Below, piece after piece: positions 2,482 to 48,961 of a DNA stretch of 49,125 bases. This DNA is from Dehalococcoidales bacterium (GTDB taxonomy: Bacteria; Chloroflexota; Dehalococcoidia; Dehalococcoidales; RBG-16-60-22). The stretch spans positions 1-49,125 of the forward strand of contig DAOUEP010000027.1 of NCBI GenBank assembly GCA_034430515.1, in the 5' to 3' direction. The translations under genes and the position numbers were made by a program. The notes beneath the pieces are model-generated. The model saw only the letters and a list, made by a program, of their open reading frames with translations, was not told the origin of the DNA and made no database searches. How positions within the stretch are numbered: the first letter of the stretch is position 1; each line of letters begins with the position of its first letter.

Positions 2482-3729
2482 ATGTCTGACCAGGTCGCTG
2501 CCGAGGCTAGCCACAGGAAAATCTGGGGCATGCACCACAATATCTTCTTCCTGGGGCTGGTCAGCCTCCTCACCGATACTTCCAGCGAGATGATTTTCAC
2601 CCTCGTTCCCCTCTTTGTCTTTAATGTCCTCGGTGCCGGTGCCCTGGTGGTTGGTCTTATCGGCGGCCTCTCCGAGAGCTTCGATGCCATTTTCCGTATC
2701 TTCAGCGGCCGGCTCAGCGACCGCATTAAAAAGCGCAAGCTACTGGCGGTGCTCGGCTACGGTTTCTCCACCCTGTGCAAGCCCTTCATGCTGCTGGCCT
2801 CGGTATGGGGCGGGGTGCTGGCCGTCCGCTTCGGCGACCGGGTCGGCAAAGGTATCCGTACCTCGCCGCGCGATGCCCTCATCGCCGATTCCGTCGGTCT
2901 GGACAAAAGGGGCAAAGGCTTTGGCATCCACCGCGCCATGGATACCGCCGGGGCGGTCATCGGCCTGGCCATCGCCGCCGTCATCATCTACGCTATCCAG
3001 GGCGGCAGCCTCGACCTCGGTAAGGAGTCTTACCGCTGGCTGGTAATCGTGGGGGTGATACCCGCCGTGCTGGCGGTGCTGGTCCTGCTGGCCTTCGTCC
3101 ACGAAAGGGGCCTGCCGAAAAGCTCCGCACCGAAGGCCGCCGACCTCGTGGCGCCGGCAGCCGCCTTCAGCACCCGGTTCAAGCTTTACCTGGCTATCAT
3201 GGCTATCTTTACCCTGGGCAACTCCAGCGATTTTTTCGTCATCCTGCGGGCGCAGAACCTGGGCACTAACGTTCTGAACATCACCCTGATGCTCGTCCTG
3301 TTCAATGTTACCTACGTCGCCACCTCGGTGCCGGCGGGCATACTCTCCGACCGCCTCGGGCGGCGGGGGCTTATCGCCCTGGGCTGGACAATCTACGCCC
3401 TCGTCTATCTCGGCTTCGCCCTGGCGACGAATATATGGCAGGTCTGGGTGCTCTTCGCCGGTTACGGCGTCTATTACGGCATCGTGGAGGGCGTGGCCCG
3501 CGCCTTTGTCGCCGACCTCGTCCCCCCGGCCAGAAGGGGCACGGCCTACGGCTATTATCACGGCGTGGTAGGGCTGACGCTGCTGCCGGCGAGCGTCCTG
3601 GCCGGTTGGCTGTGGAGTGTTTTAAGCCCGGCGGCGCCGTTCTATCTGGGGGCCGGTATGGCCTTCCTGGCGTTGCTGGCGTTGCTGGCGCTGCTGAAGG
3701 AGCCGCGTAGAAGCGCTATTCCAGTATAA
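2482..3729 (+). CDS. MFS transporter
   Basis: The protein has about 12 hydrophobic segments and an MFS-like loop GRLSDRIKKRK. The ATG at 2482 is preceded by GGTGGAG. The track extension to 2368 runs through the AT-rich promoter region (TTGACA at 2419-2424). Confidence 0.8.
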   Translation: MSDQVAAEASHRKIWGMHHNIFFLGLVSLLTDTSSEMIFTLVPLFVFNVLGAGALVVGLIGGLSESFDAIFRIFSGRLSDRIKKRKLLAVLGYGFSTLCKPFMLLASVWGGVLAVRFGDRVGKGIRTSPRDALIADSVGLDKRGKGFGIHRAMDTAGAVIGLAIAAVIIYAIQGGSLDLGKESYRWLVIVGVIPAVLAVLVLLAFVHERGLPKSSAPKAADLVAPAAAFSTRFKLYLAIMAIFTLGNSSDFFVILRAQNLGTNVLNITLMLVLFNVTYVATSVPAGILSDRLGRRGLIALGWTIYALVYLGFALATNIWQVWVLFAGYGVYYGIVEGVARAFVADLVPPARRGTAYGYYHGVVGLTLLPASVLAGWLWSVLSPAAPFYLGAGMAFLALLALLALLKEPRRSAIPV

Positions 3730-4546
3730 CGTTATCAATGAGCCTCGTTTTACCTATCTTCACCGCCAGCGATACCAGCGCCGGGGGCCGGAGGCGGTGC
3801 ATCTCCTTGAGGGTGATGGCATCGGCCACGGAGACGTAGTCGATGTCGGCCAGGGGCTCTTTCTCGATAAGCTCGGTCATCTCGCGGCGGATGGCGCCGG
3901 CGTCCTTCTCGCCCCGCGCCCAGTGCCGCCGGGCCAGCTCCAGCGCCCGGTAGAGGACGGCAGCGGCCTGACGCTGCTCGGCGTTGAGGTAGGTATTGCG
4001 GCTGCTCATGGCCAGGCCGTCGGACTCGCGCACGGTGGGGCAGGCCACCACCGCCAGGTTCATGTTGAGGTCGCCGACCATCTTCTTGATGACGGCCAGC
4101 TGCTGGGCGTCCTTCTGGCCGAAGTAGGCCTTGTCCGGGCTGACGATATTGAACAGTTTGGCGACGACGGTGGCCACGCCGCGAAAGTGGCCGGGGCGGC
4201 TGGCGCCTTCCAGCCGGCTGGCAACGTCGCCCGGCGTTACCCAGGTATCGCCGCCCTCCGGGTACATCTCCTCGACTTCCGGCATGAAGCAAATATCGGT
4301 CAGCGGCTCTAAAAGCCCCAGGTCGCGCTCGGTATCGCGGGGATAGCCCCGGAAGTCTTCCTTGGGGCCGAACTGGGTGGGGTTGACGAAGATGCTGGCG
4401 ACGACGGTCGGGCACTCTTCCCGGGCGCGTCTTACCAGCGCCAGGTGGCCTTCGTGGAGGTAGCCCATAGTGGGGACGAAGCCGACCGGCGCGGCGGCCT
4501 GGAGCCGCATTGCCCGCATCTCTGGAATTGTCTTGATGACCTGCAT
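3716..4546 (-). CDS. panC: Pantoate--beta-alanine ligase
   Basis: The sequence GFVPTMGYLHEGHLALVRRA matches the HIGH-type motif of PanC, and the protein is full length at 276 aa. Confidence 0.95.
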   Translation of the reverse strand: MQVIKTIPEMRAMRLQAAAPVGFVPTMGYLHEGHLALVRRAREECPTVVASIFVNPTQFGPKEDFRGYPRDTERDLGLLEPLTDICFMPEVEEMYPEGGDTWVTPGDVASRLEGASRPGHFRGVATVVAKLFNIVSPDKAYFGQKDAQQLAVIKKMVGDLNMNLAVVACPTVRESDGLAMSSRNTYLNAEQRQAAAVLYRALELARRHWARGEKDAGAIRREMTELIEKEPLADIDYVSVADAITLKEMHRLRPPALVSLAVKIGKTRLIDNVILE

Positions 4547-4571
4547 TTGGTTGTCTATCTGAGGGGGATTT

Positions 4572-5399
4572 TTACTCCAACCCTTTCAAGACGCTCTCGT
4601 CCATGGGGAAGCTCTGGGCGTCGGTGGGGAACTGGCGGGCCTTGACCTCCTGGTGGTACTGGGAGATAGCTGTTGACATAATATTGGCAAGCCTGGCGTA
4701 CTGCTTGGCGTGCTTGGGGACGAAGTCGGTATAGGAGCCGAGGATATCGTTGATGACCTGCACCTGGCCGTCGCAGCCGGCCCCGGCGCCGATGCCGATG
4801 GTGGGGATGCTTATCCTGCGGGTTATCAGGGTGGCCAGGGGGGCGGGGACGGTCTCCAGCACCACGGCGAAGGCTCCGGCCCGGTCGAGGGCGATGGCGT
4901 CGTCGAGGAGCTTTTTGGCCGCCTCCGGGGTCTTGCCCTGGATTTTATGCCCGCCGAGGGCGTTGATGGACTGGGGCGTGAGGCCGATGTGCCCCATCAC
5001 CGGGATGCCGCAGTCGACGATGCGCCGCACCTTATCGGCGACGGTGACGCCGCCTTCCAGCTTGACGGCCTGACAGCCGGTCTCCTGGAGGAAGCGCCCG
5101 GCGTTGCCCAGGGCCTGCTCGGCGCTGAGGTGGTAGGTCATGAAGGGCATGTCGCCGACGACGAGGGCGTTTTTAGCTCCGCGCACCACCGCCCTGGTGT
5201 GGTGCAGCATGACTTCCAGCGTCACCGGGATAGTAGAATCGTAGCCGAGGACGACCATCCCCAGCGAGTCGCCGACGAGGATAAGGGGCACGCCCGCTTC
5301 GTCGACGATGCGGGCGGTGGTGTAATCGTAAGCGGTGAGCATGGTAATCGGCTCGCCCTTACGTTTCATTTCCCGGATGGTACCGACGTTGACTCTCAC
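4572..5399 (-). CDS. panB: 3-methyl-2-oxobutanoate hydroxymethyltransferase
   Basis: The sequence reads ITMLTAYDYTTARIVDEAGVPLILVGDSLGMVVLGYDST. Confidence 0.95.
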   Translation of the reverse strand: MRVNVGTIREMKRKGEPITMLTAYDYTTARIVDEAGVPLILVGDSLGMVVLGYDSTIPVTLEVMLHHTRAVVRGAKNALVVGDMPFMTYHLSAEQALGNAGRFLQETGCQAVKLEGGVTVADKVRRIVDCGIPVMGHIGLTPQSINALGGHKIQGKTPEAAKKLLDDAIALDRAGAFAVVLETVPAPLATLITRRISIPTIGIGAGAGCDGQVQVINDILGSYTDFVPKHAKQYARLANIMSTAISQYHQEVKARQFPTDAQSFPMDESVLKGLE

Positions 5400-5408
5400 G
5401 GTGTCTCC

Positions 5409-5780
5409 TTAGCTGAAAATGCGCTCGTCCACCGGCTCGATAATCTCGTTGCGCTCGTTAACGTGGATGATGATGGGCCGGTAGCCGGGGATGGCCTCCT
5501 CCGGCACCTCGTGGTAGGTGAGGATGATGCAGAGGTCGCCGGGGACGGCCAGGCGGGCCGCGGCCCCGTTGAGGCAGATTTCACCGCTGCCGGCCTTCCC
5601 CTCGATGGCGTAGGTAGTGAAGCGGGCGCCGTTATTGATGTTGAGCACCTGCACCTGCTCGTAGGGGACGATGTCGGCGGCCTGCATCAATCTGGTGTCG
5701 ATGGTGATGCTGCCCTCGTAGTTGATGTTGGCGTCGGTGACGGTGGCCCGGTGGATTTTGCTTTTGAGCATGTTTCTCAT
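5409..5780 (-). CDS. panD: Aspartate 1-decarboxylase
   Basis: The sequence reads [25 protein letters not shown], containing the pyruvoyl-forming G-S site. Confidence 0.95.
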
Positions 5781-5805
5781 TGGACTTCCCCCTCAAGGTA
5801 TTTGG

Positions 5806-6654
5806 TCAATCGGCCTGGAGAACGGCCTCCAATTGCTTCGCCTGCTCGGCGTCTATCTTTCCCTTGGCCCGGGCGATGGGTACGGTCTGCAAGCCCAGCT
5901 CGCGGTAGGGGGCCAGCAGGGCCGGGGCCTGGTCGCCCAGGGCCTTGAGGTGCTTACTGATGGTGCCGGTATCCCCGCGGGCGATGGGCCCGGTGAGGCA
6001 GCCGGGGATGCCGATGGTCTCGATGTTGTGGAGGGTGCCGCGGATGAGAGGGAGGAGGGCCTGGGTGGCCCGGTCGGGGGGGATATTAAAGGTCTGCCAG
6101 AGGTCGGTGGCCATTTTGACCAGGGTGACCAGGTAGTTGCAGGCGAAGACGGCGGCGGCGTGGTAGGCCACTTTGTCTCCGGCCTCAAGCCTTATCCAGT
6201 GCCCGCCCAGGGCCTCGGCCATGGCCTTGAGGGTGGTCAGCAGGGGCTCTTCGGCCTCGATGCCGAAGGTGGAGCCGGGGATGTTGGCCACGGCCTCGCG
6301 GATGCCGGCGAAGGTCTGGAGGGGGTGGAAACCGCCGACCTGTGCTCCGGCCTTTCGCGCCGGCTCCAGGATGGCCACCGAATCGGCGCCGGAGCAGTGG
6401 ACGACGCTCTGGCCGCGCCGCCACTTTGCTTCGTTGGCGACGGTGCCGATGGCGTCGTCCGGCGTGGTTATAAAGATTAAGTCGGCGGCGTTGGCCACGG
6501 CCTGGTTGCTGTCCATGATGTGCAGGTTGCTGACCGCGCCGGAGGGCCGGCGCCCGCGCCGGGACGCCCCGACGAACTGGTAGCCCTTCTGGCTGAGGAG
6601 CAGCGCCAGTGCGGTTCCTACAGTACCGGCCCCGATGAATCCTATCTTGAGCAT
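5806..6654 (-). CDS. Rossmann-fold oxidoreductase (DUF2520-type); putative PanG-like ketopantoate reductase
   Basis: The N-terminus MLKIGFIGAGTVGTAL is a dinucleotide-binding fold. It is the first gene of the pan operon. The ATG at 6654 follows GAGAGG. The functional call is inferred from context and family memory. Confidence 0.6.
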   Translation of the reverse strand: MLKIGFIGAGTVGTALALLLSQKGYQFVGASRRGRRPSGAVSNLHIMDSNQAVANAADLIFITTPDDAIGTVANEAKWRRGQSVVHCSGADSVAILEPARKAGAQVGGFHPLQTFAGIREAVANIPGSTFGIEAEEPLLTTLKAMAEALGGHWIRLEAGDKVAYHAAAVFACNYLVTLVKMATDLWQTFNIPPDRATQALLPLIRGTLHNIETIGIPGCLTGPIARGDTGTISKHLKALGDQAPALLAPYRELGLQTVPIARAKGKIDAEQAKQLEAVLQAD

Positions 6655-6664
6655 CTTACCTCTC

Positions 6665-6698
6665 AAATAAAAAACCCTCTCAGCTAGACTGAGAGGGC
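6665..6698 (-). terminator. Intrinsic terminator inside the pan operon leader (attenuator)
   Basis: The minus strand reads GCCCTCTCAG-TCTAG-CTGAGAGGG-TTTTTTATTT, a 9-bp stem with a 5-nt loop and a U tract. It ends about 11 nt before the panG-like start. No minus-strand gene lies upstream that it could terminate. Confidence 0.75.
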
Positions 6699-6811
6699 AA
6701 AAGTGACAGGGTTGTATTGGTGCCGTCTCGGTCGTTGCCGATCCAAGCGACTTATTTTATTAAGGTCAATACTCCCGGCTCACCGCCATTACGGTCGGTG
6801 GCCTACTATAA

Positions 6812-14988: not shown

Positions 14989-16224
14989 TTACATTACTTC
15001 TTTTTCGCTGGCATCCACGGCCCGCTTGAGCTCCTCGGCCAAAATCGGCGGCAGGCCCTCGATGTCCACGCGCAGGAAACCCCGTACGATGGCGGCGGTG
15101 GCCTGGTCGTGGGTGAGGCCGCGGGCCATGAGGTATTCCACCTCTTCCTCGGCAATCTTGCCCACGGCGGCCTCGTGGGAGAGGTCGATGCCGGCCAGGG
15201 TGCCCTTGAGCTCGGGGATGGCTTGGATGACGCCTTTATCGCCCAGAATCAGGCCGCGGCACTCCAGGTGGCCCTTGCAGTCGGGGGCGTTGCCCTCGAT
15301 ATAGCCGCGGGCGACGATGCTGCCGCCGGTGGTGATGGCGCGGGAGACGATTTCCGTCCGCGAGCCTTTACCGTCTAAAATAACGCGCGAGCCGACGTCC
15401 AGCGAGGAGCCGGCCCCGGTGACCAGAACGCTGTTGAAGCGGGCCGTGGCGCCCTCGCCGGTACATCTGGCCAGCGGGTTCATCTGGAGCGACTTTACCG
15501 GCTTCATCAGCAGGTAGTTGCTCAGGAAGAGGCCGCCGTCCTCGATGACGACGGCGCTGCGGGGGCGCACCGCCGTGGCCGGGCTCCAGGCGTGTATCAT
15601 CGTAAAGGTTACCCTGGCGCCTTTTTTAATGTAAAACTCGGAGACGCCCAGGTGCAGCCCCGGCTCGTCGGCGGTGGCGGTGGTGCAGCCGGTGATGATG
15701 TGCAGCTCCGAGCCGGCCTCGGCGATGATGATATTATGGACGTTCTGCATCAGCTTGTCTTTGGCCAGATAGAGGCAGGCCTGTACCGGAAAGAGCGTCT
15801 TCTGCCCCGGCAGCGCCCGGATAAAATAGCCGCTGTACTGGTTGAGCTCCACGTTGGCGGTGTACTTGTCCTGGTCGACGGGCACGGCCCGCCACCAGTA
15901 GTCGGCCATCCAGTCGTACTTGGCCATGGCCTGGCCGACCGGCATGACCTCAACGCCGTCCTGGCTGACCGAGCTGTGCACCGGGGTGTTGTCCATCTGG
16001 ATGTACGTCCCCGAGCGCTGGCTGGGGTCGTCCAGCATGACGCCGGCGGTGAGCATCTGCTCCTTGGCCTGCGATGGGAGTTTAGATGGGTCTGCTTGAT
16101 AGGGTAGCTCGTCGGACGAGGCGTCGTAGCGGCTCAGGTCGATGTCCTCGCCCAGGGCGGCCTTTTTCGCTGCCGCGGCGCGGGCTTTGTCCCTGTCGGC
16201 GGGGGAAGTCCCGGTTTCAGTCAC
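14989..16224 (-). CDS. sufB: SufB/SufD-family Fe-S cluster assembly scaffold
   Basis: It has a beta-helix SufBD core (ITGCTTA..., SRAITTGGSIVARG, KGHLECRGLIL, IPEL...DLSHEAAVGKI). Confidence 0.85.
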   Translation of the reverse strand: MTETGTSPADRDKARAAAAKKAALGEDIDLSRYDASSDELPYQADPSKLPSQAKEQMLTAGVMLDDPSQRSGTYIQMDNTPVHSSVSQDGVEVMPVGQAMAKYDWMADYWWRAVPVDQDKYTANVELNQYSGYFIRALPGQKTLFPVQACLYLAKDKLMQNVHNIIIAEAGSELHIITGCTTATADEPGLHLGVSEFYIKKGARVTFTMIHAWSPATAVRPRSAVVIEDGGLFLSNYLLMKPVKSLQMNPLARCTGEGATARFNSVLVTGAGSSLDVGSRVILDGKGSRTEIVSRAITTGGSIVARGYIEGNAPDCKGHLECRGLILGDKGVIQAIPELKGTLAGIDLSHEAAVGKIAEEEVEYLMARGLTHDQATAAIVRGFLRVDIEGLPPILAEELKRAVDASEKEVM

Positions 16225-16999: not shown

Positions 17000-17530
17000 T
17001 TAACCGCCGTCGAGGGAGTGGTGCTCCGCCCGGGTAAACCAGTCCGCCGGGTCCTCGAGGAACTCAAAGTAGTCCAGCAGGGTGCTGTGGTGGACGGCCT
17101 CCTGGGCGGCCAGTTCCTCGTAAAACTCCTTTTCGCCGTCGTGGGTGGCGGCGGCGGCCTGCTCCTTGTAGAAATCGTAGGTCTTGTTTTCCATTTTCAT
17201 GGCCGTCTGGATGGCGTCCATCTCGGTGGGCAGGGCCTTATAGTCCCGGCCCATTTGCTTGATGGCCTCGGAGAAGACCGTCGCCAGCCCTTTACCGCCG
17301 TCGTGGGGGATGTGGGCCGGGGGCCAGCCCTTCTTCTGGCTCAGGGATGCATATATTTTTTCGAAGACCTGGCGGTGGATGTCCTCCTCTTCGGCCAGCT
17401 TGTTGAGGAGCTTCTGGCCCAGTTCGTTGGTGGCGGCCCGCGCCGCCTTGAGGTAGTACTCCTTGCCGTCTATTTCCATCTGCAGGGCCTGCTTGAGGGC
17501 CGCCAGCGTGGTTGCCTGGTCTTTTGCCAT
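17000..17530 (-). CDS. Ferritin-like (rubrerythrin-family) diiron protein
   Basis: It has ExxH motifs (EEDIH, QEAVH). I chose the ATG at 17530 (MAKDQ) because GGAGG precedes it. Confidence 0.75.
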   Translation of the reverse strand: MAKDQATTLAALKQALQMEIDGKEYYLKAARAATNELGQKLLNKLAEEEDIHRQVFEKIYASLSQKKGWPPAHIPHDGGKGLATVFSEAIKQMGRDYKALPTEMDAIQTAMKMENKTYDFYKEQAAAATHDGEKEFYEELAAQEAVHHSTLLDYFEFLEDPADWFTRAEHHSLDGG

Positions 17531-17790
17531 GAGCTGCCTCCTTGCGCTATGGGGTGAATTATCCGCCTCGCCGGGGCCGCCTACGCATGATAAAGCCAAA
17601 CGGCGGTGCTGTCAATCCGGTCGCGATGTCACACATATTGTACTGGCGCCGCCCGGCGCTGTATGTGATAAAAGTTGCATTAATCACACCGGGGCGATAG
17701 TAAAATATAGAATAAATGCTCTGCTAAGTATAGCATATCCCGCCCGGTATTGCCCGGCGGGACGGGCACTAATCACCGAAAGGAAGGGAA

Positions 17791-18039
17791 ATGACCGAGA
17801 AGAAAGTAGTTATCTATTCCACGCCCACCTGACCTTACTGTGGAAAGGCGAAGGAGTATCTTTCGCAAAAGGGAATCAAGTACACGGAATACAACGTGGC
17901 CGCCGACCGGGATAAAGCTAAAGAGATGGTGGCCCTGACCAAACAGATGGCGGTGCCGGCCATCATCATCGATGACAAGGATATCGTCATCGGCTTCAAC
18001 GTCGCCAAGCTGGACGAGCTGCTGTCAGCCAAGAAATAA
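17791..18039 (+). CDS. Glutaredoxin-like protein with in-frame UGA (putative selenocysteine) in the U-P-Y-C redox motif
   Basis: The translation is MTEKKVVIYSTPT[TGA 17830-17832]PYCGKAKEYLSQKGIKYTEYNVAADRDKAKEMVALTKQMAVPAIIIDDKDIVIGFNVAKLDELLSAKK. GGAAGGGA precedes the ATG. It is not in the ORF track because the TGA splits it. Confidence 0.75.
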
Positions 18040-18047
18040 GGCCGCCT

Positions 18048-18131
18048 TTAGAGGTCTTTCTTTAGCTGCTCAAACTCTTCACGGGTTATTTCGCCCTTGG
18101 AGTAGCGCTCCCGCGCTATGTCCAGGGGCAT
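18048..18131 (-). CDS. Possible 27-aa SHOCT-domain mini-ORF
   Basis: MPLDIARERYSKGEITREEFEQLKKDL resembles the SHOCT consensus. No clear SD is present. Confidence 0.25.
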   Translation of the reverse strand: MPLDIARERYSKGEITREEFEQLKKDL

Positions 18132-18240: not shown

Positions 18241-18699
18241 ATGAATTTGACCAGAATCCTGATCATCGGTATTATCGTGCTGGGCGTGATTGGCATCGGC
18301 ATCGGCGGGGTCTTTGTACAGCAGGGGTTCGCCAAGGACAACCTGCTCAAAACAGCTATGGAGCAGGAGAAGATTACCCTGGGCATCCCCAGCGACAAGC
18401 TGGCGGCCGGTGAGGTTATCGATACGGCCAAAGAGGCCCAGATTGCCGGCGATACCGTCCGCGAGCACCGTCACAGCATCGCCCCCACCTACGGCGACCT
18501 GCTGGGGGGCAAGCAGTTCGACCCCACCAACCCGGAGCAGCTGACCTACGCCCAGGCGCTCAACCTGGAGAACTACCTGTACCTGGCCGTGCTCGGCTTC
18601 GGCGTGACGCAGATTGCCATGGGGGCGGGGGCGGCGATGATTGTCCTGGGGCTGGCCCTGGTGGCCACCGGCGTCGTCCTCGTTCGCCACAGGCACTAG
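18241..18699 (+). CDS. Hypothetical membrane protein (N- and C-terminal TM helices)
   Basis: AAGGAGG lies 6 nt upstream. The protein has a TM helix at each end and a soluble middle. Confidence 0.7.
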   Translation: MNLTRILIIGIIVLGVIGIGIGGVFVQQGFAKDNLLKTAMEQEKITLGIPSDKLAAGEVIDTAKEAQIAGDTVREHRHSIAPTYGDLLGGKQFDPTNPEQLTYAQALNLENYLYLAVLGFGVTQIAMGAGAAMIVLGLALVATGVVLVRHRH

Positions 18700-18773: not shown

Positions 18774-19079
18774 GTGCCCAAGCGCGTCAGCCTGGCGGTG
18801 AACCACGTGCCCGTTGACCTGGACTACTTCGTGGCGGGCTATATCGAGCGTGTCGTCGGCGGCATCATCGCCAGCCTGCACGATACCGGCGAGATTGAGG
18901 CGCTGGAGCTAATCGTGGATAGCGAGGGACGGGTCAGAATTAGCCTCAACAACGCCGACGTCTCCCTCAAGGAGTTTCCCGTGGAGATTATCCGGAGCAC
19001 CCTGGAGGGCGTGGTGGCGCCCCTCAAGGGCGTAGAGCGGGTGCTTAACCCCATCGAAATCCGGATAGAGACTGGCTAA
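18774..19079 (+). CDS. Hypothetical protein (101 aa)
   Basis: It starts at GTG after GGGAGGAAAG, and its codon usage matches the neighbours. I recognise no family. Confidence 0.6.
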   Translation: MPKRVSLAVNHVPVDLDYFVAGYIERVVGGIIASLHDTGEIEALELIVDSEGRVRISLNNADVSLKEFPVEIIRSTLEGVVAPLKGVERVLNPIEIRIETG

Positions 19080-23477: not shown

Positions 23478-24863
23478 TTGAAAGTAACCAGAGAGAAAAT
23501 CGAGAACCGCCAGGCCTATCTCACCGTGGCCATGGAGCCCGCCGAGATGGAAGCGGCCAAGACCGACGCCTACAAGCGCCTGGCGCAGCGGGCCGATATC
23601 CCCGGCTTCCGCAAGGGCAAGGCCCCCCGGGCGGTGGTGGAGCGCCACCTGGGCAAAGACCGCCTCCTCGAAGAGGCCGTCGAGCACCTGCTCCCCCAGG
23701 CCTACGAGCAGGCCGTCAAGGAGGACGCCATCGAGCCGTACGCCCGCCCGGAGGTGGAGATAACCCAGAGCGACCCGCTGGTCTTCAAGGCGGTGGTGCC
23801 GCTGGAGCCTACCGTGGAGCTAGGGGATTATCAATCTATCCGCATGAAGCCGGATAAGGTTGACATAACCAAGGACAAGATAAACGGCGTCCTCGAGGAG
23901 CTGCGCCACCAGCACGCCACCTGGGAGCCGGTGGAGCGGGCGCTGGCCTATGATGATTTAGCCGTCATCGATATCGACGCCACCGCCGACGACAAGCCCC
24001 TCATCAAGCGCCTCGACGTGCAGTACCAGGCGCTCCAGGACGCCACCACGCCGGTGCCGGGCTTCGTGGAACAGATTATCGGCATGAAGAAGGACGAGGC
24101 AAAAGAATTCAACCTCACCTTCCCGGCGGAATACCCCTCCGGCCCCGACCTGGCCGGCAAGGAGGCCCATTTCAAGGTAAAGCTCACCGAGATTAAAGAA
24201 GAAAAGCTGCCGCCCCTGGACGATAACCTGGCGGTGCAGGTAGGGGCGGAGTTCACCACGCTGGAACGCCTCCGCGAGGAGGTGGTTAAGAGCCTCCAGG
24301 TGCGCGGCGAGGAAAACGCCCGCATGGACCTGGAGGAGCGGGTTATCAACGCCGTTATCGACCAGTCGCAAGTTGAATACCCGCCGGTGCTGGTGGCGAT
24401 GGAGACCGAGCGCATCCTGAGCGAGCAGGAGCGGCGGCTCCAGCAGTCGGGGAAGGGGATGGACGACTATTTAAAGAGCCTCAACAAGACCGCCGAGCAG
24501 CTCCAGGAGGGCATCAAGCCGGTGGCCGCCAAGAACGTGGCCGCCTCGCTGGTGCTGAGCAAGGTGGCCGAGGCGGAGAAAATAGAGGTCAGCGACGAGG
24601 ACGTCCTCAACGGCATCCGCAACATGGCCCGGGGCGTCGCCGAGGACAAGCGCGAGGACATGGTCAAAATGCTGGATACGCCGCAGACCCGCCAGTCGCT
24701 CACCTCGTCCCTCAAGACGCGCAAGACCATTGAGCGGCTCACCGAGATAGCCCGCGGCCCGGCCAGGAAAACCAAGCCAGCCACCGGGGGCAAGACCGCC
24801 AAGCCCAAGGCGGCCAAACCCCGTAAGACTACCAAGAAGGAGACCAAGGAGGAGGAGAAATGA
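23478..24863 (+). CDS. tig: Trigger factor (with Lys-rich C-terminal tail)
   Basis: The GFRKGKAP ribosome-binding signature is present, with a PPIase-like middle domain. It ends in a TGA that overlaps the clpP ATG. Confidence 0.93.
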
Positions 24864-29185: not shown

Positions 29186-29268
29186 CGTTGATGATGCAGG
29201 GCGGTTCACCCGCCGAAGCTTTAGCGTAGGCAGGCCGGGTGGGAATAGATAACATGGATGGGGCGGGG
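29186..29268 (+). repeat. Solo arm copy of the repeat family (core at 29237-29251)
   Basis: The sequence is GGTTCACCCGCCGAAGCTTTAGCGTAGGCAGGCCGGGTGGGAATAGATAAC. Confidence 0.8.
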
Positions 29269-29276
29269 TGGTTATC

Positions 29277-30233
29277 ATGGAAGATGATTGGGACAAATAT
29301 ATAAAGCTGTTTCTTGATTATCTTAAGGCGGAACGCAACGCGTCTCCGTACACCATGCGCAATTACCTGATATCACTCGGTGCGTTTGAGAGCTTCTGCA
29401 AAAAGGATAATACCTACACGCCTAAAAAGGTTGAAAAACCATTAGTACGCAGTTTTCTCAACCATCTCAATGAAACGGGAATTGCCCGTTCCAGCATCGC
29501 CCGTAATATGTCAGCGATACGCTCTTTCTTTAGGTATCTGCAGAGAGAAGAAATCGTGCCCAAGAACCCTGCAGCCAATATCACATCGCCCAAGCTAGAC
29601 CGCCGTTTACCCTCCTTTCTTACCAGGGAAGAGGTCAAGCATATTGTAGAATCACCAGGTTTGCCCAAACAACCTAATAAGATGTCATATCCGGTATTAC
29701 TACGCGATATTAGCTTGCTAGAATTACTTTACGCCTCCGGCCTGCGGGTAAGCGAGGTTGTCAGTATAGATTTGGAACAGATGAATCTTGACTATAATGA
29801 AATCCGGGTTAAAGGCAAAGGATCAAAAGAGAGAAACGTGTTGATTGGCGAGCCGGCAGCGCGAACCTTGAGGACTTATCTTAAAGAGGCCCGCCCGGTG
29901 CTTGCTGGAGATAAGAAGTCCCGGGCAGTTTTTATTACCAGCTACCAGGATGAAGACGGTATCCAGTCCGGCGAGCGTCTGACCGTGCGCCGGGTTCAGA
30001 AAATCATCAAGAAGTATTCTAGGGACATAGGTAAAAGGGTGCACCCGCATATCCTCCGCCACACCTTCGCCACCCACCTCCTCGACGGCGGCGCCGACCT
30101 CAAGGTGGTGCAGGAGCTTTTAGGCCACGCCGACCTGGCCTCGACGCAGATTTACACCCACGTCAGCCAGACTCGCGCCCGCCAGATTTACCTGGCCGCC
30201 CACCCCATGGCCAGGGGCAAGGGAGAAGAATAA
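29277..30233 (+). CDS. xerC: Tyrosine recombinase XerC/XerD family
   Basis: The N-terminal SAM-like core-binding domain reads YLKAERNASPYTMRNY. The catalytic residues are R...HILRHTFATHLL...GHADLASTQIYTHV. The dprA-topA-xerC synteny is conserved. Confidence 0.88.
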   Translation: MEDDWDKYIKLFLDYLKAERNASPYTMRNYLISLGAFESFCKKDNTYTPKKVEKPLVRSFLNHLNETGIARSSIARNMSAIRSFFRYLQREEIVPKNPAANITSPKLDRRLPSFLTREEVKHIVESPGLPKQPNKMSYPVLLRDISLLELLYASGLRVSEVVSIDLEQMNLDYNEIRVKGKGSKERNVLIGEPAARTLRTYLKEARPVLAGDKKSRAVFITSYQDEDGIQSGERLTVRRVQKIIKKYSRDIGKRVHPHILRHTFATHLLDGGADLKVVQELLGHADLASTQIYTHVSQTRARQIYLAAHPMARGKGEE

Positions 30234-31962: not shown

Positions 31963-32625
31963 GTGCTCAAGGCCGACCTGCATATCCACAGCGAGTATTC
32001 CCTGGACTGCACCACGCCCCTGGAGCGCATCGTCGAGCGCTGCCGGGCGCTGGGGATAAACTGCATCGCCATCGCCGACCACGGCACCGCCGAAGGAGCG
32101 CTCAAGATGGCCAGAATCGCCCCCTTCCGCGTCATCGTCGCCGAGGAAATCCTGACCACCCAGGGTGAAATCATGGGCATGTTCCTCAAGGAGACCATTC
32201 CCAGCGGGCTCACCCCCGACGAGACGGTCAAGCGCATCAAGGCCCAGGGCGCTCTGGTGAACATCCCCCACCCCTTCGAGACGATGCGCGGCTCCGCCCT
32301 CAAAGACTGGTGCATCGAGGAAATCGCCAAATACATCGACCTCATGGAGGTCTTAAACTCGCGCAGCCCCTTCCCGGCCAACACCGAGCGGGCCAAGGCC
32401 TTCGCCGCCAAGCACGGCATCCCCGGCAGCGCCGGGTCGGACGCCCACTCCGTCCGCGAAATCGGCAACGCCTACGTGGAGATGCTGGAGTTTAACACCC
32501 CGCAGGAGTTCCTCCAGGCCCTGGCGCGGGGGCGCATCGGCGGGAGGCGCTCCAGCCCCCTGGTGCACTTCTACTCCACCTGGGCCAGATTACGGGGCAA
32601 GCTCTTCCCGCGGAGGCGGGCTTGA
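31963..32625 (+). CDS. PHP-domain metal-dependent phosphoesterase
   Basis: The sequence contains DLHIHSEYSLDC, IADHGT and GSDAHS. Confidence 0.8.
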   Translation: MLKADLHIHSEYSLDCTTPLERIVERCRALGINCIAIADHGTAEGALKMARIAPFRVIVAEEILTTQGEIMGMFLKETIPSGLTPDETVKRIKAQGALVNIPHPFETMRGSALKDWCIEEIAKYIDLMEVLNSRSPFPANTERAKAFAAKHGIPGSAGSDAHSVREIGNAYVEMLEFNTPQEFLQALARGRIGGRRSSPLVHFYSTWARLRGKLFPRRRA

Positions 32626-46025: not shown

Positions 46026-46104
46026 CGGGGTGTGGCGCAGTCTGGTTTAGCGCGCAGCGTTTGGGACGCTGAGGTCGGTGGTTCAAATCCACTCACCCCG
46101 ACCA
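46026..46104 (+). tRNA. tRNA-Pro (anticodon TGG), CCA encoded
   Basis: The sequence is CGGGGTGTGGCGCAGTCTGG...CAGCGTTTGGGACGCTG...GGTTCAAATCCACTCACCCCGACCA. Confidence 0.88.
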
Positions 46105-46188
46105 GCCCGACCAAGTGGACATAATATCCACTTCACCCCGTGCATCGTTTTACCCTCAAATAGCCCGGGTTCCTGGCCGTATTCGCCG

Positions 46189-46217
46189 TTGACAATTTTT
46201 ATTGATGCGTGTAAAAT
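46189..46217 (+). promoter_or_regulatory. Promoter of nrpR
   Basis: TTGACA (46189-46194), a 17-nt spacer, then TAAAAT (46212-46217), in an AT-rich intergenic region. Confidence 0.7.
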
Positions 46218-46229
46218 TTCTAAGAATAC

Positions 46230-46243
46230 GGAAAACGGTTTCC
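46230..46243 (+). promoter_or_regulatory. Candidate NrpR operator GGAA-N6-TTCC
   Basis: GGAAAACGGTTTCC lies 13 nt downstream of the -10 box and 23 nt upstream of the nrpR ATG. It matches the palindromic operator consensus described for methanogen NrpR. Confidence 0.6.
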
Positions 46244-46266
46244 TATTACCTTATTTTGGAGCAACC

Positions 46267-47307
46267 ATGCCCTTTGAGTCGCAAGAGGTAGAGCGTAAGG
46301 AGCTGGCCATCCTCAGAATCCTGGGCGACTCCGCCGAGCCGGTCGGCGCCCGCGTCATCGCCCAGCGCCTCCACGAGCACGGCTACGAGCTGGGCGAGCG
46401 GGCGGTGCGCTACCACCTGCGTCTCATGGACGAGCGCGGTCTCACCTTCCTGGTCGGCCAGCGCGACGGACGCATCCTCACCGACAAGGGCATGGCCGAG
46501 GTGCAGTCGGCCCTGGTGGGCGATAAAGTCGGCTTCGCCAGCTCCCGCATCGAGACGCTCTCCTTCCGCACCTCTTTCGACAGCGCCGTCCGCCGCGGCC
46601 TGGTGCCGGTCAACCTGTCCTTCTACGCCCGGGAAGACTTCGAGCGGGCGCTCCGGGCGATGCGGCCCGCCTTCGAGGCCGGTTACGCCGCCAGCGACCT
46701 GGTAGCCGTGGCTGCCGAGGGCAAGCCCCTGGGCGACATGACGGTGCCGCCGGGCAAGATAGGGCTGGCCACCGTCTGCTCTCTGGTCTTTAACGGGGTG
46801 CTCCTCAAGGCGGGCGTGCCCATGGACTCGCGTTTCGGGGGGATTTTGCAGCTGCGCGGCCGCCAGGCCCGCCGCTTTACCGAGCTTATCGACTACGCCG
46901 GCTGCTCGCTGGACCCGTCGATGATTTTCATCAAGGCGCGGATGACCTCGGTGACCGACGTCGTCGCCACCGGCGACGGCGAGGTTCTGGCCAACTTCCG
47001 CGAGATTCCGGCGGTCTGCCGCCCCGTGGCCGAGGCGGTTATCGGGGGGCTGGAGGAGGCCGGTCTCCGGGGTCTGGCCGTCATGGGCGAGGCCAGCCAG
47101 CCGGTCTGCGAGATACCGGTGGGCCTCAACAAGATAGGCGTCGTCCTGCTGGGCGGCCTCAACCCGGTGGCCGCCGCCGAGGAGGCCGGTATCGCCGCCG
47201 ATAACCTGCCGATGAGCACCGTCATGGAATACGGCGACCTCGTTCCCTTCCGCGACGCCGTCATCGAGTACCGCGACCTGGTGCGTTTCTGGGAGACCTC
47301 AAGGTAG
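46267..47307 (+). CDS. nrpR: NrpR-family (winged-HTH plus DUF128) nitrogen regulatory repressor
   Basis: LAILRILGDSAEPVGARVIAQRLHEHGYELGERAVRYHLRLMDERGLT is the typical NrpR N-terminus. I chose the ATG at 46267; the track ORF runs back through tRNA-Pro. Confidence 0.8.
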   Translation: MPFESQEVERKELAILRILGDSAEPVGARVIAQRLHEHGYELGERAVRYHLRLMDERGLTFLVGQRDGRILTDKGMAEVQSALVGDKVGFASSRIETLSFRTSFDSAVRRGLVPVNLSFYAREDFERALRAMRPAFEAGYAASDLVAVAAEGKPLGDMTVPPGKIGLATVCSLVFNGVLLKAGVPMDSRFGGILQLRGRQARRFTELIDYAGCSLDPSMIFIKARMTSVTDVVATGDGEVLANFREIPAVCRPVAEAVIGGLEEAGLRGLAVMGEASQPVCEIPVGLNKIGVVLLGGLNPVAAAEEAGIAADNLPMSTVMEYGDLVPFRDAVIEYRDLVRFWETSR

Positions 47308-47368: not shown

Positions 47369-48961
47369 ATGAACCTGCAACGCCCCAATGCCAATGACGC
47401 CACCCGTACCGCCAACCGCTCGCGCAGCGTCTCGCCGATGAGCGGCCTCTGCACCCGTTGTATCGACGGCTGCACCGGCAACTGCGAGGTCTTTAAGGCG
47501 ACCTTCCGCGGCCGCGAGCTGATTTACCCCGGCCCGTTCGGCGAGATCACCGCCGGAGGCGATAAGGACTACCCGGTCGACTACTCGCACCTCAACATCC
47601 AGGGGTACGCCCTGGGCGCCCGCGGCCTGCCCGAAGGCGTGGAGGGCAATCCGGACACGGCCACCTTCCCCTCGGTGAGCACCGAGACGGACTACGGCTG
47701 GGATATCAAGGTCAAGATGAAGACGCCCATCTTCACCGGGGCACTGGGCTCCACCGAAATCGCCCGCAAGAACTGGGAGCACTTCGCCATCGGGGCGGCC
47801 CTGAGCGGCGTGACGCTGGTCTGCGGCGAGAACGTCTGCGGCATCGACCCCAAGCTGGTGCGCAACAAGAACGGCCTGGTCACCTCCGCCCCGGACATGG
47901 ACCGCCGCATCGAGACCTACCGACGCTACCACCAGGGCTACGGGGAAATTCTGGTGCAGATGAACGTGGAGGATACCCGCCTGGGCGTGGCCGAGTACGT
48001 CCACAACAAGCACGGCCTGGAGACCATCGAGCTCAAGTGGGGCCAGGGCGCCAAGTGCATCGGCGGGGAAATCAAGGTCAACTCGCTGGAGCGGGCTTTA
48101 GAGCTGCAAAAGCGCGGCTACATCGTCACGCCCGACCCATCCAACCCGGTCAACCAGGCCGCCTTCAAGGACGGCGCCATCAGGGAGTTCGAGCGACACT
48201 CCCGCCTGGGCTTCATCGACGAAGAAGGCTTCTACGCCGAGGTCGAACGGCTGCGCAACATCGGCTTCAAGCGCGTCACCCTCAAGACGGGCGCCTACGG
48301 CCTGCGCGAGCTGGCCATGGCCATCAAGTGGAGCTCCAAGGCTAAAATTGATTTACTCACCATCGACGGCGCCCCCGGCGGCACCGGCATGAGCCCCTGG
48401 CGCATGATGGAGGAGTGGGGCATGCCCTCGCTCTACCTGCACGCCGCCGCCTGCGATTTCTGCCAGAAGCTGGCCGATAAGGGCGAGCGCGTGCCCGATA
48501 TCGCCTTCGCCGGGGCGTTCTCCAGCGAGGACGGCGTCTTTAAGGCGCTGGCGATGGGGTCGCCTTTCTGCAAGGCCGTCTGCATGGGCCGCGCCCTGAT
48601 GATTCCCGGCATGGTGGGCAAGAACATCGGCCTGTGGCTCAAGGACGGCAAGCTGCCCAACACCGTCAGCCAGTTCGGCTCCACGCCGGAGGAAATCTTC
48701 ATCAACTACGAGGACGTCAAGAACATCGTCGGCGCCGGCGAAATCAAGAATATCCCGCTGGGGGCCATCGGCATCTACAGCTACAGCGAGAAGATAAGGG
48801 TGGGGCTGCAGCAGCTCATGGCCGGGGCGCGCTGCTTCTCCATCCCGGCCATCTCCCGCCGCGAGCTGATGAGCCTTACCGAGGAATGCGCCAAAGTTAC
48901 CGGCATCCCGTACCTGATGGAGGCCTACCGCGAGGAGGCGATGGAGATTCTGAACGGGTAG
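47369..48961 (+). CDS. Glutamate synthase-related FMN-binding protein (archaeal-type GltB domain)
   Basis: The N-terminal Cys cluster reads CTRCIDGCTGNCEV. It has a TIM-barrel FMN domain (DGAPGGTG, GRALM). Confidence 0.78.
   Translation: MNLQRPNANDATRTANRSRSVSPMSGLCTRCIDGCTGNCEVFKATFRGRELIYPGPFGEITAGGDKDYPVDYSHLNIQGYALGARGLPEGVEGNPDTATFPSVSTETDYGWDIKVKMKTPIFTGALGSTEIARKNWEHFAIGAALSGVTLVCGENVCGIDPKLVRNKNGLVTSAPDMDRRIETYRRYHQGYGEILVQMNVEDTRLGVAEYVHNKHGLETIELKWGQGAKCIGGEIKVNSLERALELQKRGYIVTPDPSNPVNQAAFKDGAIREFERHSRLGFIDEEGFYAEVERLRNIGFKRVTLKTGAYGLRELAMAIKWSSKAKIDLLTIDGAPGGTGMSPWRMMEEWGMPSLYLHAAACDFCQKLADKGERVPDIAFAGAFSSEDGVFKALAMGSPFCKAVCMGRALMIPGMVGKNIGLWLKDGKLPNTVSQFGSTPEEIFINYEDVKNIVGAGEIKNIPLGAIGIYSYSEKIRVGLQQLMAGARCFSIPAISRRELMSLTEECAKVTGIPYLMEAYREEAMEILNG

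Follow-up and report, generated by a model that had tools for sequence, protein, structure and literature searches.

A UGA codon in a small glutaredoxin-like gene of a Dehalococcoidales bacterium very probably encodes selenocysteine

The stretch of DNA analysed here, referred to as the window, is 49,125 nt long (contig DAOUEP010000027.1 of assembly GCA_034430515.1, Dehalococcoidales bacterium), and the in-frame UGA at codon 14 of a small redoxin gene within it very probably encodes selenocysteine (Sec). A selenoprotein hidden at this place had been proposed in a preliminary description made from the letters alone, and every sequence-level check advised there came out in its favour. The proposal gained support from a TGA conserved in orthologues, from homologues with Cys in its place, from purifying selection before and after the codon and from a hairpin specific to the UGA forms; family assignment and the Sec machinery of the lineage were added as further grounds. 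Sec-glutaredoxins are an established, experimentally studied family whose genes are commonly split or mistranslated by gene callers, and the understanding of Sec decoding and of glutaredoxins is unchanged by the finding. What is modestly new lies in the host lineage, in how broad the Sec clade is, in a well-defined SECIS element and in the proof that such proteins are mis-stored in databases.

Gene, product and family

The features of the gene are given below by window position, with the basis of each in brackets.

17791-18039, forward strand: complete gene of the putative Sec redoxin, an 82-residue glutaredoxin-like protein of the YruB/Cp9 type (reading frame, PF00462, TIGR02196, dN/dS)
17780-17788, forward strand: Shine-Dalgarno-like purine tract aaggaaggg, 5' of the ATG (read directly)
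17830-17832, forward strand: UGA, predicted Sec codon of residue 14, at the nucleophilic position of U-P-Y-C (4 assemblies, 16 orthologues)
17839-17841, forward strand: TGT, Cys17, predicted resolving cysteine of UxxC (invariant column in the alignment)
17953-17958, forward strand: Val55-Pro56, predicted cis-Pro loop of thioredoxin-fold redoxins (V55 and P56 invariant in the alignment)

The frame runs over 82 codons from the start ATG (17791-17793) to the stop TAA (18037-18039) and is interrupted by a single in-frame TGA; coordinates, Shine-Dalgarno signal and translation were recovered as first described. Translated directly, the frame reads MTEKKVVIYSTPT*PYCGKAKEYLSQKG...VPAIIIDDKDIVIGFN...SAKK, and with Sec written in, the product reads MTEKKVVIYSTPT-U-PYCGKAKEYLSQKG...MAVPAIIIDDKDIVIGFN...SAKK (81 standard residues and Sec14). 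The gene is split in the ORF listing, as had been noted, and what the listing leaves of it is a 47-aa fragment with a GTG start (17896-18039). Public gene calls on 4 JGI contigs of the same organism likewise retain solely the 47-aa C-terminal fragment. The cis-Pro is conserved across the Cp9, NrdH and BC3987 groups (PMC3720550).

Profile searches were run with U replaced by C in the query protein. The Pfam Glutaredoxin model (PF00462) matched with E=5.5e-20 and 71.8 bits (gathering threshold 22.9) over profile positions 1-59 of 60, and the NCBIfam model TIGR02196 (GlrX_YruB) scored 90.8 bits against a curated cut-off of 88.55, a narrow margin; the initial description of the product as a small glutaredoxin-like protein agrees with both matches. 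Scores fell below the cut-offs of the NrdH-redoxin model TIGR02194 (42 bits against 85.75), of the classical GSH-dependent glutaredoxin 3 model TIGR02181 (63.6 bits against 90) and of the mycoredoxin model. The closest PDB sequence match was 7C10 (E=5.5e-15, about 40% identity over residues 4-79). Taken together, the HMM and PDB sequence matches fix the predicted fold, and by these matches the product is a putative thioredoxin-fold redoxin of the YruB/Cp9 glutaredoxin-like family.

The UXX-star (seleno)proteins are also small Grx-like selenoproteins, and their subfamily model NF041212 was just passed (68.9 against 66 bits, model positions 1-66 of 70, with the C-terminal end missed); scores for the equivalog-level models NF041114, NF041211 and NF047338 lay far under their cut-offs. 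The C-terminal Sec-x-x-stop that was used as the mark of UXX-star, deduced from the family name and a '2 Sec' entry (PMC13188914), is absent from the window protein, which ends ...LLSAKK-TAA and differs from UXX-star in this respect.

Conservation of the UGA codon

The SufC protein of the window led to the 4 JGI contigs, which come from different samples and are 98.6-100% identical to the window over the overlap. The gene matches in all 4 without a single mismatch, codon 14 being TGA throughout, and the contigs differ slightly elsewhere. A protein search with the Cys-substituted query returned 416 relatives. The nearest of these in the alignment (73-85% identity) are recorded with Trp at the catalytic position and slightly remoter ones with Cys. 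For 3 of the 'W' proteins (one each from ENA, NCBI and JGI) the DNA was fetched, and TGA was found at that codon in every case; none of the three loci translates to its database protein. The artefact recurs in 36 of the best 120 database relatives, with the motifs UPYC, UPFC, UPWC and UPHC, and the Trp is most simply explained as a product of gene calling with genetic code 4 on short contigs (<1 kb). A functional redox gene is in this way absent from the gene track, its orthologues being stored as 47-aa fragments or with a spurious catalytic Trp, and database users who mine active-site variation or count Chloroflexota selenoproteins would be misled.

Among GTDB species representatives, a scan turned up another 13 Chloroflexota/Dehalococcoidia genomes with TGA, one of them the closed chromosome CP070645.1, and brought the Sec-form orthologues to 16 (3 database loci and 13 GTDB genomes; 57-85% protein identity). 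TGT or TGC was found at the Sec codon in 59 relatives (other Dehalococcoidales, Patescibacteria and others), where it specifies the first Cys of CxxC, the residue that had been expected in this column. A sequencing or assembly error would require the true codon to be TGC or TGT, each one base away from TGA, and such an error is exceedingly improbable: the TGA was found with an identical gene in 4 independent metagenome assemblies whose contigs differ elsewhere, and again in the 16 diverged orthologues, which were drawn from the ENA, NCBI, JGI and GTDB collections.

Selection on the gene was compared on the two sides of the TGA in 15 Sec-form orthologues. The dN/dS was 0.101 for codons 2-13, 5' of the TGA, and 0.103 for codons 15-60, with synonymous change near saturation (pS 0.7-0.9). 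The frame 3' of the TGA is open in all 15 Sec forms, and the other two frames contain 1-8 stops. Because purifying selection is equal on both sides of the stop, a separately translated C-terminal fragment is ruled out. The same data bear on a pseudogene, that is, a Cys-type glutaredoxin with a nonsense mutation and a decaying 3' frame, for which the stop in frame at codon 14 and the 47-aa remnant left by the gene callers would speak. A nonsense mutation would neither recur at one codon across species nor spare purifying selection, and the TGA is kept in all 16 orthologues, which the synonymous divergence shows not to be one recent clone; a pseudogene has almost no probability.

The Sec forms make up two Dehalococcoidia groups in a neighbour-joining tree, and Cys forms are interspersed in both. 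Because of this interleaving, several switches between Sec and Cys are suggested, for which a tree of so short a protein is only indicative.

A hairpin downstream of the UGA

17848-17866, forward strand: predicted bacterial SECIS hairpin with an 8-bp stem (one G-U pair) and the loop GUA (folding, comparison, codon freeze)

In this hairpin GCGAAGGA (17848-17855) pairs with UCUUUCGC (17859-17866) below the apical loop GUA (17856-17858). Its energy is -8.3 kcal/mol for the isolated stem and -9.7 kcal/mol in a 25-nt context, and the spacing from UGA to loop is 23 nt. The published bSECIS model (PMC13188914 Fig. 2) describes an apical loop of 3-9 nt on an upper stem of 4-16 bp, a G within loop positions 1-2, a distance of 16-37 nt from UGA to loop and an MFE of -7.5 kcal/mol or lower, and the window hairpin lies within all four limits. 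A bacterial SECIS 3' of the TGA had thus been rightly anticipated and wrongly drawn: the pairing put forward earlier, GAAAG (17843-17847) with CUUUC (17860-17864) around a 12-nt loop, neither folds nor is conserved, and folding and comparison give the 8-bp stem with the GUA loop in its place.

The hairpin is a property of the UGA forms. All four limits hold for 13 of the 17 Sec forms and for 2 of the 59 Cys forms, and the other 4 Sec forms have 7-bp stems that are weaker than -7.5 kcal/mol if an isolated perfect stem is scored. In 17/17 Sec forms, a hairpin of 7 bp or more starts 18 nt from the U of UGA. Mean local folding energy was -9.3 kcal/mol in the 17 Sec forms versus -2.5 kcal/mol in the 59 Cys forms (Mann-Whitney p=4e-9). 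Among the Sec forms, codons 20 and 22-25 (GCG GAG TAT CTT TCG) are invariant, and synonymous codons vary almost everywhere else; Leu CTT and Ser TCG, both for six-codon residues, are fixed within the hairpin in 15/15 Sec forms. K21 alone varies among the hairpin codons (AAA or AAG), which turns an A-U pair into a G-U pair. The pS of the hairpin codons is 0.105, compared with the near-saturated values elsewhere. Such a codon freeze is what selection on an RNA structure within a coding region leaves behind, and this comparison among the Sec forms alone, which controls for relatedness, is the strongest evidence. Two loci that encode a divergent peptide (L037 and L075) form a hairpin of 7 bp with a G-initial loop in the same position; their hairpins are one base off the register of the main group and were counted as position-conserved alternatives, not as strict column-by-column covariation.

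Rfam SECIS families gave no match in 17700-18100, either at gathering or at E<=10, where only chance snoRNA and leader hits appeared. Many bacterial SECIS elements are unlike each other and unlike those of E. coli (PMC13188914), and because of this diversity the Rfam result carries little weight.

Across the relatives the SECIS was found in three states, intact, decaying (L005) and fossil (L043), and these states together with the interleaved Sec and Cys forms make an unusually clean natural experiment on Sec/Cys switches. The interleaving in the tree also means that the two forms are functionally interchangeable over evolutionary time, and this would fit a UGA that is translated mostly as Cys, or passed by near-cognate read-through, for example under Se limitation, with an ordinary CPYC redoxin as the product. 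Under such decoding a plain change from TGA to TGY would be favoured, as has evidently happened in L005 and L043, and a SECIS under strong RNA-level selection makes sense only when SelB-dependent decoding is the selected outcome; we regard such decoding as very unlikely and Sec as very probably the residue encoded by this UGA.

Stop codon usage and genetic code

Within the window 49 genes were validated by third-position GC and mostly also by Pfam. TGA ends 6 of the 49, including tig (23478-24863), sufC and a rubrerythrin, and an internal TGA is needed by none of them (0/49). The ending of tig had been cited at the outset as a sign that TGA is a genuine stop in this DNA, and the other five genes bear this out; because TGA terminates these validated genes, the genetic code of the organism is not reassigned. 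For the organism, TGA is the stop of 7/61 validated genes, though it makes up 47% of stop-type trinucleotides (63% GC).

A genome-wide reassignment, which would put Trp (code 4) or Gly (code 25) at residue 14, could appeal to this unusual rarity of TGA stops and to the W with which orthologues are stored in public protein databases. The stored W is most simply the calling artefact described above, in keeping with the 3/3 checked loci that do not translate to their database protein, and the six window genes that end in TGA have full-length Pfam matches. A Trp or Gly that took the place of the nucleophile would moreover abolish the chemistry of a CxxC redoxin, and the UGA-specific hairpin and the freeze of synonymous sites would be left unexplained. 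Reassignment is accordingly given a negligible probability, and the Sec reading is retained.

Pfam searches on about 30 further window genes yielded no second selenoprotein candidate. Separately, a scan of the whole window for coding potential across in-frame TGA codons returned only antisense artefacts, at 4674 and 19613.

Selenocysteine machinery in the lineage

Genes for selA, selB, selD and tRNA-Sec were found neither in the 49-kb window nor in the 10 kb past its left end, which hold ribosomal-protein and EF-Tu genes only. ARAGORN reported six ordinary tRNAs and no tRNA-Sec in the window, and tRNA-Sec was likewise absent from 83 Grx loci. For selD, the tblastn probe was an E. coli SelD sequence, and curated models were used to validate the match. 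In Dehalococcoidales relatives, a distance of 3-4 kb separates the Grx orthologue from selD and selA. The gene order in one Dehalococcoidales MAG (L016) is grx (Cys form), copA, selD, selA; its selD scored 383 bits (cut-off 125) and carries an in-frame TGA where E. coli SelD has Cys17, and its selA scored 546 bits against a cut-off of 268.

A JGI metagenome scan with the SelA of this MAG as probe gave 80 selA loci, with tRNA-Sec(UCA) adjoining in 17. A cluster of selA, selB and tRNA-Sec was found at L113, and selB-selD-selA at L147 on a contig of 62% GC, which comes from the same metagenome as the TGA-form Grx L003 and is not tied to the window genome. Among the fetched contigs, the 80 selA loci included, none joined a TGA-form Grx to sel genes, and none of the 80 came from exactly the five JGI samples known to hold the organism. 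Sec machinery is thus present in related genomes of the lineage, and BSepDB has entries for Dehalococcoidia MAGs with 46-49 selenoproteins (PMC13326102).

Genomic neighbourhood

17000-17530, reverse strand: rubrerythrin gene, divergent from the Grx gene (Pfam PF02915 on the 176-aa call)
17600-17790, no strand assigned: divergent intergenic region with the conserved motif GTATGTGATAAAAGTTGCAT at 17661-17680 (motif comparison, palindromes found)

The rubrerythrin gene heads a cluster on the minus strand that comprises rubrerythrin, SufC, SufB/D, flavin reductase, rubredoxin, ferritin-like, Rieske and rubrerythrin genes, and the redox and oxidative-stress cluster said to lie beside the gene is therefore real. 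The divergent pair of rubrerythrin and Sec-Grx recurs at four further loci (L004, L007, L008 and L017). The motif in the intergenic region is about 20 nt long; L007 and L017 share it with the window, and part of it is conserved in L008 and L004. A sigma-70-like site lies on the minus strand at 17615-17587.

Directly 3' of the Sec-Grx, a 304-aa TrxR/AhpF-C-like gene was found in L004, L008 and L013, and a fragment of one in L002; none stands beside the Grx in the window, L007 or L017. A peroxiredoxin gene was found neither beside the Grx in the window nor adjoining it in the relatives' loci viewed, and nrd genes (nrdIEF or nrdHIEF context) were absent from the surroundings of the window gene.

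Proposed mechanism and role

From the sequence comparisons and from characterised relatives we infer a course of events in which SelB binds, Se is actually incorporated, and a reductant, substrates and a role in stress are proposed. Translation would begin at the ATG at 17791, and the hairpin at 17848-17866 would work as a bacterial SECIS for the UGA at 17830: SelB with Sec-tRNA(Sec) would bind the apical G-U loop, and Sec would be inserted in place of termination. The predicted product is a thioredoxin-fold protein of 82 residues whose active site is U14-P-Y-C17. Analogy with characterised relatives suggests that the selenolate of U14 attacks an oxidised substrate and that C17 resolves the mixed intermediate to give an intramolecular Se-S bond. 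Re-reduction of this bond would most likely fall to a low-Mr TrxR-like flavoprotein and not to glutathione, the partners here being borrowed from relatives.

The role is probably, by the same analogy, a glutathione-independent defence against peroxide and oxygen stress in an anaerobic Dehalococcoidia-type Chloroflexota bacterium, and it is proposed because of the rubrerythrin-led stress cluster, the shared promoter motif and the TrxR-like neighbours in relatives. A wider reading, which we consider unlikely, is that heavy UGA recoding shapes the genome of the lineage and that the Sec-redoxin carries electrons in a Se-dependent, glutathione-independent O2/peroxide defence, co-regulated with the rubrerythrin/Suf/rubredoxin cluster through the motif at 17661-17680; the chain would then run from a TrxR-like flavoprotein to the Sec-redoxin and on to acceptors of the rubrerythrin or peroxiredoxin type.

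Relation to known redoxins

The best solved-structure match to the window protein is cGrx1 of Clostridium (Alkaliphilus) oremlandii, which is of similar length (84 versus 82 aa) and has the landmarks T-x-P-x-C, M-A-V-P and V-G-F in common with it. cGrx1 is a native U-P-X-C selenoprotein that was crystallised as a Sec-to-Cys variant (PDB 7C10, 7C12, 7C13; PMC7642778; see also Kim et al. 2011 Mol Microbiol 79:1194). Its motif is UPHC and its host a Firmicute, whereas the window motif is UPYC; its proposed partner is the selenoprotein MsrA, for which the window showed no gene.

NrdH-redoxin is reduced by thioredoxin reductase. It has a small glutaredoxin-like thioredoxin fold and the VP and GF landmarks in common with the window protein, from which it differs by its motif C-[VMI]-Q-C (UPYC in the window) and by the nrdIEF context that the window gene lacks.

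Cp9 (YruB) of C. pasteurianum passes electrons from the NADH-dependent TrxR-like Cp34 to the peroxiredoxin Cp20 (Reynolds, Meyer and Poole 2002, as cited in PMC3720550), and its homologues are of 75-80 aa and typically have a C-P-[YW]-C-type motif (PMC3720550). The window protein resembles Cp9 in its match to TIGR02196, its 82 aa, its U-P-Y-C motif and its stress-gene neighbours of the rubredoxin/rubrerythrin type, and the TrxR-like gene adjoins the Sec-Grx in L004, L008 and L013 as cp34 adjoins cp9. Cp9 differs in being a Cys protein, and the neighbour of the window gene is a divergent rubrerythrin, with no adjacent TrxR-like or peroxiredoxin gene.

Grx has stood among the catalogued selenoprotein families of bacteria since 2006 at the latest (PMC1794560), and a 2026 review enters 'Grx, PF00462, UxxC' as experimentally supported (PMC13188914). 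The window gene shares with this family the Pfam domain, the single Sec in UxxC and the logic of Sec/Cys pairs. The catalogued members (Geobacter sulfurreducens, Alkaliphilus metalliredigenes and Moorella thermoacetica) belong to Deltaproteobacteria and Clostridia, whereas the gene described here belongs to Chloroflexota/Dehalococcoidia and has at least 13 species-level relatives; a widespread Dehalococcoidia clade is added to a Sec-glutaredoxin family for which the 2026 review gives few species only (PMC13188914).

Database representation and stop-codon usage

Among the best 120 protein relatives of the glutaredoxin-like product (Grx), tryptophan is stored at the catalytic position in 36, including database entries P0001, P0002 and P0005–P0009. 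The DNA of three such relatives was checked and all three carried TGA at the catalytic codon; the tryptophan is most simply explained by the use of genetic code 4 to translate TGA on contigs of less than 1 kb. On longer contigs the gene was cut to a 47-aa fragment instead of being given in the tryptophan form.

This organism, with a GC content of 63%, seldom uses TGA as a stop. The 49 validated genes of the window end in TAA (23), TAG (20) or TGA (6), and TGA stops amount to 7/61 when 12 genes from L088 are added, while TGA accounts for 47% of stop-type trinucleotides in the overall sequence. Three of the six TGA-terminated window genes end in a start/stop overlap (24860-24863, 16217-16224 and 32622-32625). 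The scarcity of TGA stops may reflect avoidance in a lineage rich in selenocysteine (Sec).

Sec genes and possible Sec/Cys switches

Sec-synthesis genes were located 3–4 kb from the Grx orthologue of one related locus, and a Cys form retaining the SECIS hairpin was found in another:

L016:3368-4420, minus strand, selD
L016:4528-5907, plus strand, selA
L043:10037-10075, Cys-form (TGC) Grx orthologue with SECIS hairpin, Syntrophales MAG DAIMEJ010000005.1

In L016, copA lies between the Grx orthologue and selD/selA. The selD of this locus is itself a selenoprotein gene (GAG-U-ASK) with a strong hairpin after it, and was shortened to 304 aa by ORF calling. The selD ORF of L147, another related locus, is also truncated at the N-terminus and matches the model from position 34 on, which is consistent with the same cause.

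The whole SECIS hairpin, GCGAAAGAGUUUCUUUCGC, is still present in L043 despite the TGC codon, and resembles a relic left by a recent switch from Sec to Cys or by a transfer. L005, also of the Cys form, groups within the Sec forms; its hairpin is partly decayed, with 6 of 8 pairs left.

Genes adjoining Grx in related loci

Two kinds of neighbour were recorded:

L004:1531-2445, L008:1019-1930 and L013:10274-11188, thioredoxin-reductase/AhpF-C-terminal-like flavoprotein, 304 aa, directly downstream of Sec-Grx
L006:1327-4017, L009, L013, L020 and L016:786-3266, CopA-type copper P-type ATPase, adjoining the Grx gene

The flavoprotein falls under the equivalog cut-offs of both TrxR and AhpF and is therefore a distinct subtype; it is likely to be the dedicated reductase of Sec-Grx. 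The CopA-type ATPase, which has two N-terminal metal-binding domains, occurs beside Grx in five Dehalococcoidia loci, and its recurrence hints that the redoxin is tied to copper handling.

Sec-Grx and its surroundings in the window

The following features flank the Sec-Grx gene:

17661-17680, motif GTATGTGAYATAAGTTKCAT, between the divergent Sec-Grx and rubrerythrin genes
17664-17688 and 17738-17762, palindromes in the same promoter region
18048-18131, minus strand, SHOCT-domain ORF, 27 aa, convergent with the Grx gene
18241-18699, conserved 152-aa ORF without family match, after the SHOCT-domain ORF
18774-19079, conserved 101-aa ORF without family match, after the 152-aa ORF

GTATGTGAYATAAGTTKCAT is kept in the divergent promoter region of the window, L007 and L017, and in part in L004 and L008. 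The motif shows a loose similarity to operators of the TGTGA-N6-TCACA type and could be the site of a redox regulator.

The Grx gene (17791-18039) has a GC content of 0.51 and a GC3 of 0.72, the window gene mean for GC3 being 0.862 (s.d. 0.051). This low GC3 is in part due to the SECIS codons, which are frozen and T-ending; a horizontal origin of the gene is possible. Its stop is 9 nt from that of the SHOCT-domain ORF. The 101-aa ORF is also found near Grx in L007, L014 and L017.

Other features of the window

Three further features were noted:

6719-6803, minus strand, pan motif, Rfam RF01749 (41.7 bits vs 36.2)
29268-30233, plus strand, tyrosine recombinase/phage-integrase-family gene, GC3 0.58
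46078-47307, plus strand, NrpR-type regulator (PF01995, 257 bits, plus HTH_12 domain)

The pan motif lies upstream of a DUF2520-panD-panB-panC gene run (3716-6666, minus strand), its expected and ordinary context. The GC3 of the recombinase gene is well under that of all other window genes, and the gene lies in the lowest-GC part of the window (28–30 kb, GC 0.57); it is probably foreign DNA. NrpR is a nitrogen repressor best known from methanogenic archaea; here, in a Chloroflexota-like genome, the gene for the NrpR-type regulator adjoins a glutamate-synthase-domain gene (47369-48961).
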